Source: a virus
Taxonomy: Duplodnaviria; Heunggongvirae; Uroviricota; Caudoviricetes
Length of the DNA stretch: 13,222 nt
IMG/VR virus record: IMGVR_UViG_3300033066_001253
Span: 1-13,222 of that record
Reading direction: 5' to 3' (one strand)
Position numbers and translations under genes: made by a program. Below the pieces are notes generated by a model. It was not told the origin of the DNA and did no database searches. It was given only the letters and a program-made list of their open reading frames with translations. The number at the start of each line of letters is the position of its first letter. Position 1 is the stretch's first letter. Shown here piece by piece: positions 4,164-4,210 of the stretch.

Positions 4164-4182
4164 CTATAACGTGGGGTTAGAC
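4164..4182 (-). other. attI-like simple recombination site
   Basis: Minus strand GTCTAAC-CCCAC-GTTATAG: two inverted 7-bp boxes with a 5-bp spacer and no hairpin arms, at the array end next to the recombinase. Confidence 0.75.
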
Positions 4183-4210
4183 ATCACATAAACTTTCATC
4201 AATAAAATCA

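Follow-up and report, generated by a model that had tools for sequence, protein, structure and literature searches.

Integrons are defined by the combination of an IntI recombinase, an attI site and attC sites. In class 1 attI1 and in attIA of Vibrio cholerae, the attI is a simple site in which a 5-nt spacer separates two imperfect inverted boxes, and it lies at the 5′ end of the recombinase gene, between the first cassette and a gene transcribed away from it. Crossover takes place in the array-side G|TTRRRY box, the incoming cassette replaces one half of the site, and the sequence of the site differs among recombinase clades; the phage locus described here resembles attI in each of these respects. 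The attI1 stretch ...GCCCTAAAACAAAGTTA contains the boxes CCCTAAA-ACAAA-GTTRRRY and recurs at 100% identity in at least 5,000 plasmids, so that the boxes cited in an earlier sequence-only reading of our DNA were given correctly. Small genes that are carried between phage genomes by other means are also known. PeSL cassettes of T4-type phages are stem-loop-flanked genes in hyperplastic regions that are shuffled between genomes, and in this they are like the array that we describe; to our knowledge they are held to move by homologous recombination, with neither a dedicated recombinase nor a fixed point of entry, and in that they are unlike the phage site. Closest in cassette structure are the clusters of attC sites lacking an integrase (CALINs) reported from virulent phages, among them some that infect marine Flavobacteriia; IntI1 can use some of these clusters (Qi et al. 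2023, PMC9892861). Our literature search found no description of the recombinase–site platform set out below.

We analysed a stretch of 13,222 nt (the window) at the start of a viral contig of 147,923 bp. This contig begins inside a cassette array, so the distal array end of this phage is absent, and its other end (147,840–147,923) is a (CAATTAAA)n repeat that is probably an assembly break. A tyrosine recombinase gene is followed by genes for a SLOG-domain protein, a GroEL-type chaperonin and a clamp-loader-like ATPase. Relatives have a DNA polymerase B gene upstream of the array and, past the recombinase gene, one for GroES. From sequence comparison we consider it highly probable that positions 4159–4187, between the array and the recombinase gene, are the array-proximal recombination site, equivalent to attI, of an integron-like cassette system of large phages. 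The features of the locus are as follows.

83–4170, plus strand: array of ten cassettes (A to J), running off the contig start
3703–4170, plus strand: cassette J, the site-proximal cassette, with a hairpin at 3703–3790 (dG −14.3) and an ORF at 3832–4158
4159–4170, plus strand: variable arm, corresponding to the R arm of integrons; it is the final part of cassette J, ATTACCTATAAC, and fits the cassette-end consensus aATTgNNNNTAAC
4164–4182, plus strand: 7-5-7 core, CTATAAC-GTGGG-GTTAGAC, read on the minus strand as GTCTAAC-CCCAC-GTTATAG
4167–4172, plus strand: crossover interval, TAACGT; the canonical position would be A4169|C4170
4171–4175, plus strand: spacer of 5 nt, GTGGG, constant and staying with the platform
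4176–4187, plus strand: constant arm (L arm), GTTAGACATCAC, of which TTA and CAC are kept in the close clade
4188–4210, plus strand: leader from the site to the ATG, containing CAATAAAATCA at 4200–4210
4211–5026, plus strand: Xer-like tyrosine recombinase, 271 aa, matching Pfam Phage_integrase and SAM_4

The core sequence and its distance from the recombinase gene are as the sequence-only reading gave them, with 28 nt between the core end (4182) and the ATG (4211) and 41 nt from the crossover to the ATG. That reading had also described a 7-5-7 site without flanking arms, and here one half stands: hairpin arms are indeed absent, the DNA of 4163–4200 having almost no folding potential (dG −1.1 kcal/mol, compared with −14 to −17 for the cassette hairpins), but conservation runs past the 7-mers, and the protein-binding arms, predicted at 4159–4170 and 4176–4187, are probably about 12 nt each. 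An attI is read in double-stranded form rather than as a hairpin, and the phage site, which does not fold, may be read likewise. On the platform side the conserved positions are G at +1, TTA at +7 to +9 and (T)CAC at +14 to +17, and on the cassette side they are those of the consensus aATTgNNNNTAAC; conservation of the L arm was read from a logo of ten distinct close-clade sites. Positions 4176–4187 are 100% identical in the relative L002. Some other relatives retain little of the L arm (L108 has GTCTTCT and L101 GTTTTCC), which counts against an attI reading. The spacer of relatives is GTAGA, GTAGG, GGTTG, GGAGA or GGGGG, and in a distant clade TATTA, TAGAT or TATCA, while the equivalent of the 4159–4170 arm differs with the neighbouring cassette (L002, L017, L052, L058/L060, L080 and L109). 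The bare two-box motif is not statistically exceptional: TAACN5GTTA has one match in the window against 0.30 expected, and at least one match in 51 of 200 shuffles. With the motif by itself within chance, the case for the site comes from its position and from comparison with relatives. Its TAACG is the last of exactly 11 plus-strand TAACG boxes in positions 1–4200, all of which are cassette boundaries.

Comparison of closely related phages places cassette exchange at this site. L002, a viral contig of 55.7 kb whose recombinase is 99% identical, has most cassettes in common with the window; the two differ in three places, with all breakpoints at TAAC|G. The platform junction of L002 reads ...TTATTTCTAAC|GTGGGGTTAGACATCAC, and cassettes I and J (3409–4170) are absent. 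At the match to 4166 it carries the C typical of cassette H and at the match to 4173 the G typical of the site, so that the crossover falls within TAACGT, 4167–4172. The same joint, 3404 to 4167, at which six letters fit either side, is present in a 12,983-nt contig from public run X3 and in a contig from X4. Both forms of the locus therefore occur in public runs, with cassette H next to the site in X3 and X4, and J–site–recombinase, part of the form H–I–J–site, in X2. The comparison extends to six lineages (window/L002, L011/L017, L050/L052, the three variants L056/L058/L060, L079/L080 and L108/L109), in which 100% identical recombinase regions adjoin different neighbour cassettes and homology stops at ...|TAAC each time. 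The half from C4170 onwards stays with the recombinase gene in all six, and in six of six the phages differ in their proximal cassettes but have one lying further out in common; L058, for instance, carries the proximal cassette of L060 at a distance from the site that is greater by 777 nt. The distant clade has TAAC|G at internal boundaries and TAAC|TA at the platform, so that the crossover lies at or left of the C. Partners share only 4–6 nt at the platform junction, and the site only TAACG(T) with the hairpins, which argues against homologous recombination.

These breakpoints, in TAACGT for the window lineage and in TAAC for the five others, together with the 3404 to 4167 joint, agree with the entry point at about 4169/4170 that the sequence-only reading proposed. 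The check that it suggested, that variation should lie beside the site while 4170–4210 stays conserved, came out positive in the six lineages, subject to two qualifications: interior cassettes also differ (twice between the window and L002, and between L108 and L113), and the loci were anchored on the recombinase gene, so that short contigs bias the view towards the proximal end. Absence of I and J from L002, X3 and X4 fits J as the youngest cassette, but a deletion would look identical, and insertion and deletion are indistinguishable in every pair compared. On comparative evidence, cassettes are gained or lost exactly at the site, as at an attI, and the change may have run in either direction. 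Four loci whose spacers also differ (L027, L029, L047 and L069) have backbones only 80–92% identical and so give no information on a second crossover. The P0022 contigs, which their gene tables suggested were different, have 100% identical DNA and were dropped as variants.

The platform accompanies the recombinase well beyond these lineages. About 40 homologues of the recombinase are at least 54% identical and many more are 40–46% identical, and 123 stretches in viral contigs encode a relative. Among 68 distinct upstream contexts, searched from −85 to −20 of the ATG, 64 carry TAAC-N5-NNTA 36–54 nt ahead of the start codon, compared with 1.8% of background windows. A cassette array, scored as at least three cassette-end motifs within 3 kb, lies upstream on the same strand in 46 of 46 testable loci, with a mean of 5.7 such motifs per 3 kb upstream against 0.8–2.0 elsewhere. 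Position, breakpoints in six lineages and presence in 64 of 68 relatives together support the proposal that the recombinase gene has an attI-like simple site at its 5′ end. Judged from the aligned sites, the platform half changes with the recombinase clade: the close clade has G-rich spacers (GTGGG, GTAGA, GGTTG) followed by nTTAnnnnnCAC, and the distant clade has TATTA-TATATAA, a pattern that parallels the co-variation and co-evolution of attI sites with their integrases (PMC8946536). The exact 23-mer of the window's platform half was found in the L002 contig alone among viral contigs and had zero matches in metagenome contigs. Among cultured phages, recombinase identity did not exceed 40%. 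One of them, Polaribacter phage Freya_10 (L102, MT732472.1), has a 12-5-12 inverted repeat, ATTGTTGCTAAC-ACCCC-TATAACAACAAT, within 4089–4146, 46 nt ahead of a 37%-identical integrase, and the symmetry of the arms, weak in the window, is clear there. Between the records of Freya_1 to Freya_10 there are differences of up to 4.9 kb, and the start of the integrase moves from 71 to 4168; there may be a variable region upstream, or the records may merely start at different points.

Each cassette follows the plan G-hairpin-GTTRRRY-ORF-...ATTGnnnnTAAC, in which a long imperfect hairpin comes first, a plus-strand ORF follows and the consensus aATTgNNNNTAAC forms the end. Boundaries fall after the C at 82, 501, 751, 1027, 1770, 2262, 2688, 3076, 3408, 3702 and 4170. 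The GTT box after the hairpin is complementary at nine of nine positions to the end of its own cassette in B, C, I and J, and the ends of J form a 22-nt inverted repeat (3782–3803 with 4149–4170, 95% complementary). In cassette B (501–751) the entire 64-aa ORF is within the hairpin loop, between stems at 507–529 and 698–720, and the body past GTTATGTTC is almost empty. In cassettes C and I, translation starts within the cassette's own hairpin loop (838–874 and 3494–3530), and both encode the peptide ENPAL(N/S)KG, which derives from the conserved 3′ hairpin arm.

Breakpoints of the L002 indels and stand-alone unitigs pair each hairpin with the ORF on its right. The extra cassette of L002 reads G-hairpin-GTTATAAG-ORF-CTTATAAC, a layout in which the hairpin belongs to the right-hand ORF. 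From this pairing it follows that the crossover box is the 5′ TAAC on the plus strand (G|TTRRRY on the minus strand), that the site is at the canonical attI end of the array, and that the minus strand has the canonical integron direction; the choice of the minus strand as the reading strand in the sequence-only reading is borne out by hairpins that travel with right-hand ORFs. All cassette ORFs are on the plus strand and aimed at the site, the recombinase gene is transcribed away from it, and the array extends leftwards.

Two cassettes also stand apart from the recombinase backbone in public runs. Cassette I (3405–3703) is a stand-alone unitig at a depth of 120–138 in public runs X2, X4 and X6, and cassette G (2685–3068) is a stand-alone contig at a depth of 7–206 in X3, X4 and X6; where the recombinase backbone is covered, its depth is 1–6 in X2, X4 and X6 and 35 in X3. 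Cassette depth set against backbone depth indicates that, for the most part, the cassettes are spread over many more genomes than those of this phage. In public assemblies, unitig ends and loose ends cluster at cassette boundaries. Hairpin families beginning GGTTGGGTGTAT..., GGCTGCG/AAAT... and GTCCGATGATAA... are common to the arrays of L050, L061, L079, the window and L002, and phages that share them have recombinases only 40–45% identical and different platform sites; sequence likeness of this kind suggests a cassette pool shared across recombinase clades. In L011, an N6_N4 DNA methyltransferase gene (5301–6286) and a gene for an FtsK_gamma-domain protein (8076–8456) each lie between TAAC|G boundaries and so are cassettes; their predicted products hint at counter-defence cargo. 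Within 3 kb past the recombinase gene, L023, L037, L038 and L052 carry six or seven cassette-end motifs on the minus strand, and these could form a second, inverted array.

The recombinase itself resembles archaeal XerA more than IntI. R137, K162/K165, H222, R225, H248 and Y257, the R-K-H-R-H/W-Y set, are invariant among 20 homologues, so that the catalytic residues expected of an IntI are present. The protein aligns end to end with Pyrococcus (archaeal) XerA (4a8e, E = 3e-32), whereas VchIntIA (2a3v) aligns to residues 15–181 and 221–260 only, with 86 residues in VchIntIA against 39 in the phage protein between the two pieces; this split alignment and the difference in length indicate that the IntI additional domain is absent. 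TIGR02249 scores 151.5 against a cutoff of 265 and in two pieces, all NCBIfam scores are below curated cutoffs, and relatives of 347 aa differ solely by an N-terminal extension. Taken on its sequence, the recombinase is not IntI. In known integrons it is the additional domain that reads folded attC, and its absence here counts against an attI reading. Being XerA-like and without that domain, the recombinase makes the site an attI analogue and not a proven member of the integron family.

The sequence-only reading saw little space for a promoter of the recombinase's own and suggested that the gene may be expressed by read-through from the array. The 41 nt between crossover and ATG afford no room for accessory sites of the DR1/DR2 type or for a Pc/Pint promoter pair, and with cassette genes aimed at the site, no platform promoter can drive the cassettes, so that the Pc of attI has no counterpart here. 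A sigma-70 promoter scan of 3400–5400 returned 12 matches against 10.4 in shuffles, which is uninformative for a Bacteroidota-type host, and a search of the same interval for plus-strand terminator-like sites found none, all three terminator-like sites being on the minus strand; the gap between site and ATG therefore holds neither a plus-strand terminator-like site nor an above-chance sigma-70-like promoter, and promoters of the host may be of another type. CAATAAAATCA is present once in the 148-kb genome and recurs ahead of the ATG in L025, L098, Freya_10 and several 40%-identical relatives. It reads CAAT-N5-CAAT, CAAT being the mirror of ATTG in the cassette arm, and CAATAAAATCAAT (4200–4212) overlaps the recombinase start codon; from its sequence the element could be an accessory or autoregulatory binding site. 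Its single occurrence in 148 kb rules it out as a general phage promoter. TA....CAAT, a candidate third recombinase arm, is present in 8 of 63 contexts against a background of 2.3%, and so is enriched and far from universal.

The Xer-like character of the enzyme invites another reading of the same DNA, as a dif-like or attP-like core site that serves genome resolution or host integration, on which the cassettes have piled up as parasites, as IMEX do at dif. The end-to-end alignment with XerA and the missing IntI domain are as this reading would have them, as is the clean 12-5-12 repeat before the Freya_10 integrase, beside which no obvious hairpin array was seen. We nevertheless regard it as unlikely, because the cassette array is upstream on the same strand in 46 of 46 testable viral loci, the left arm is invariably formed by a cassette end, and a genome with DNA polymerase B, a clamp loader and GroES/GroEL is not temperate-looking. 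Even so read, the site would still be the insertion site for cassettes, a reading that differs from ours in purpose more than in mechanism.

Large phages recombine actively, and the junction could instead be a fossil boundary left by the phage's own homologous or microhomology recombination between cassette ends, as proposed for the stem-loop cassettes of T4-type phages, its two-box appearance being incidental. Cassette ends do have a 12-nt consensus in common, hairpin feet share GGTTG or GTTTTG, and cassette differences exist inside arrays. Against this, only the 4–6 nt of TAACGT are shared at the platform junction and breakpoints are exact in six lineages, the platform geometry is kept across recombinases only 40% identical and co-varies with them, and an intact recombinase gene always adjoins it; we hold such an origin to be decidedly unlikely. 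Scarcely credible, in our judgement, is that the site marks the array-distal end, for example as a hairpin-less remnant of a last attC, with the true entry point beyond the contig start. The orientation of the genes and of RYYYAAC...GTTRRRY on the plus strand would put a textbook attI upstream of the genes, and the window's distal array end is not on the contig. Yet the hairpins belong to right-hand ORFs, variation is at the recombinase end in six lineages, and complete arrays (L009 and L011) abut DNA polymerase or other genes at their far end, where TAAC is followed by a full hairpin and no recombinase.

Under the preferred reading of 4159–4187 as an array-proximal, attI-equivalent site, the left arm, up to A4169 or C4170, would be the end of the last cassette, and C-GTGGG-GTTAGACATCAC would be a fixed platform half; in the lineages compared, the platform half is inherited with the recombinase gene. 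By analogy with attI × attC recombination, the 271-aa recombinase would bind the two inverted arms on double-stranded DNA, cleave the plus strand in TAA|C of the site and exchange strands with the TAA|C box that lies, on the same strand, at the base of a folded cassette hairpin on its 5′ side. An incoming cassette would then sit left of the site, its hairpin preceding its gene and the gene aimed at the recombinase, and the reverse reaction would remove proximal cassettes. The cleaved bond, the reacting strand and a single-stranded cassette partner are inferred, and the differences observed may have arisen by insertion or by deletion. More broadly, we lean towards a separate, IntI-independent class of integron in large virulent phages, in which a short Xer-like recombinase would act on double-stranded DNA at a compact site, about 29 bp long and next to the recombinase's own start codon, and would capture hairpin cassettes from a pool shared among phages with 40–45%-identical recombinases, the captured genes facing the recombinase and so joining one-directional phage transcription.

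The combination would matter in that an attI-type site and attC-type hairpins seem to be served by a recombinase without the domain thought necessary for folded attC, in the genomes of virulent phages and with the genes in reversed orientation. If this is correct, the IntI lineage is not a precondition for cassette capture, and large phages possess a fast route of their own for swapping accessory genes; the methyltransferase cassettes suggest that the genes swapped include counter-defence functions. In that case, an enzyme and an entry site may have been missed in phage attC clusters described as integrase-less. The mapped site is a concrete substrate for a recombination assay, and cultured Polaribacter phages may make the system tractable.

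Set against known systems, the locus takes features from several. Its conserved arms of about 12 nt, its degenerate L arm, in which only TTA and CAC are kept, and its non-IntI enzyme distinguish it from attI, as does its position, the class 1 attI of R100 lying about 139 bp from the start codon and the phage site 41 nt. The recombinase is nearest XerA in sequence and length, and the site may be akin to those of XerC/D, archaeal XerA and the IMEX that use dif, where inverted arms of about 11 bp flank a centre of 6–8 bp; its own arms are 11–12 nt, and its centre counts as a 5-nt spacer or as 7 bp between TAA| and |TTA. Unlike Xer/dif, one arm of the phage site is supplied by mobile cassettes with long imperfect hairpins, and the site heads an ordered array of 8–12 units and adjoins its own recombinase gene. 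CALINs likewise have attC-like GTTRRRY hairpins between small ORFs, and cassettes with orphan methyltransferases occur both there and in L011; the report on CALINs describes no recombinase or attI of the phages' own (PMC9892861), whereas we identify both and locate the entry site by comparison. On present sequence comparisons, the phage site is best described as an attI analogue by function and geometry that would be served by a non-IntI recombinase, and not as an integron by membership.
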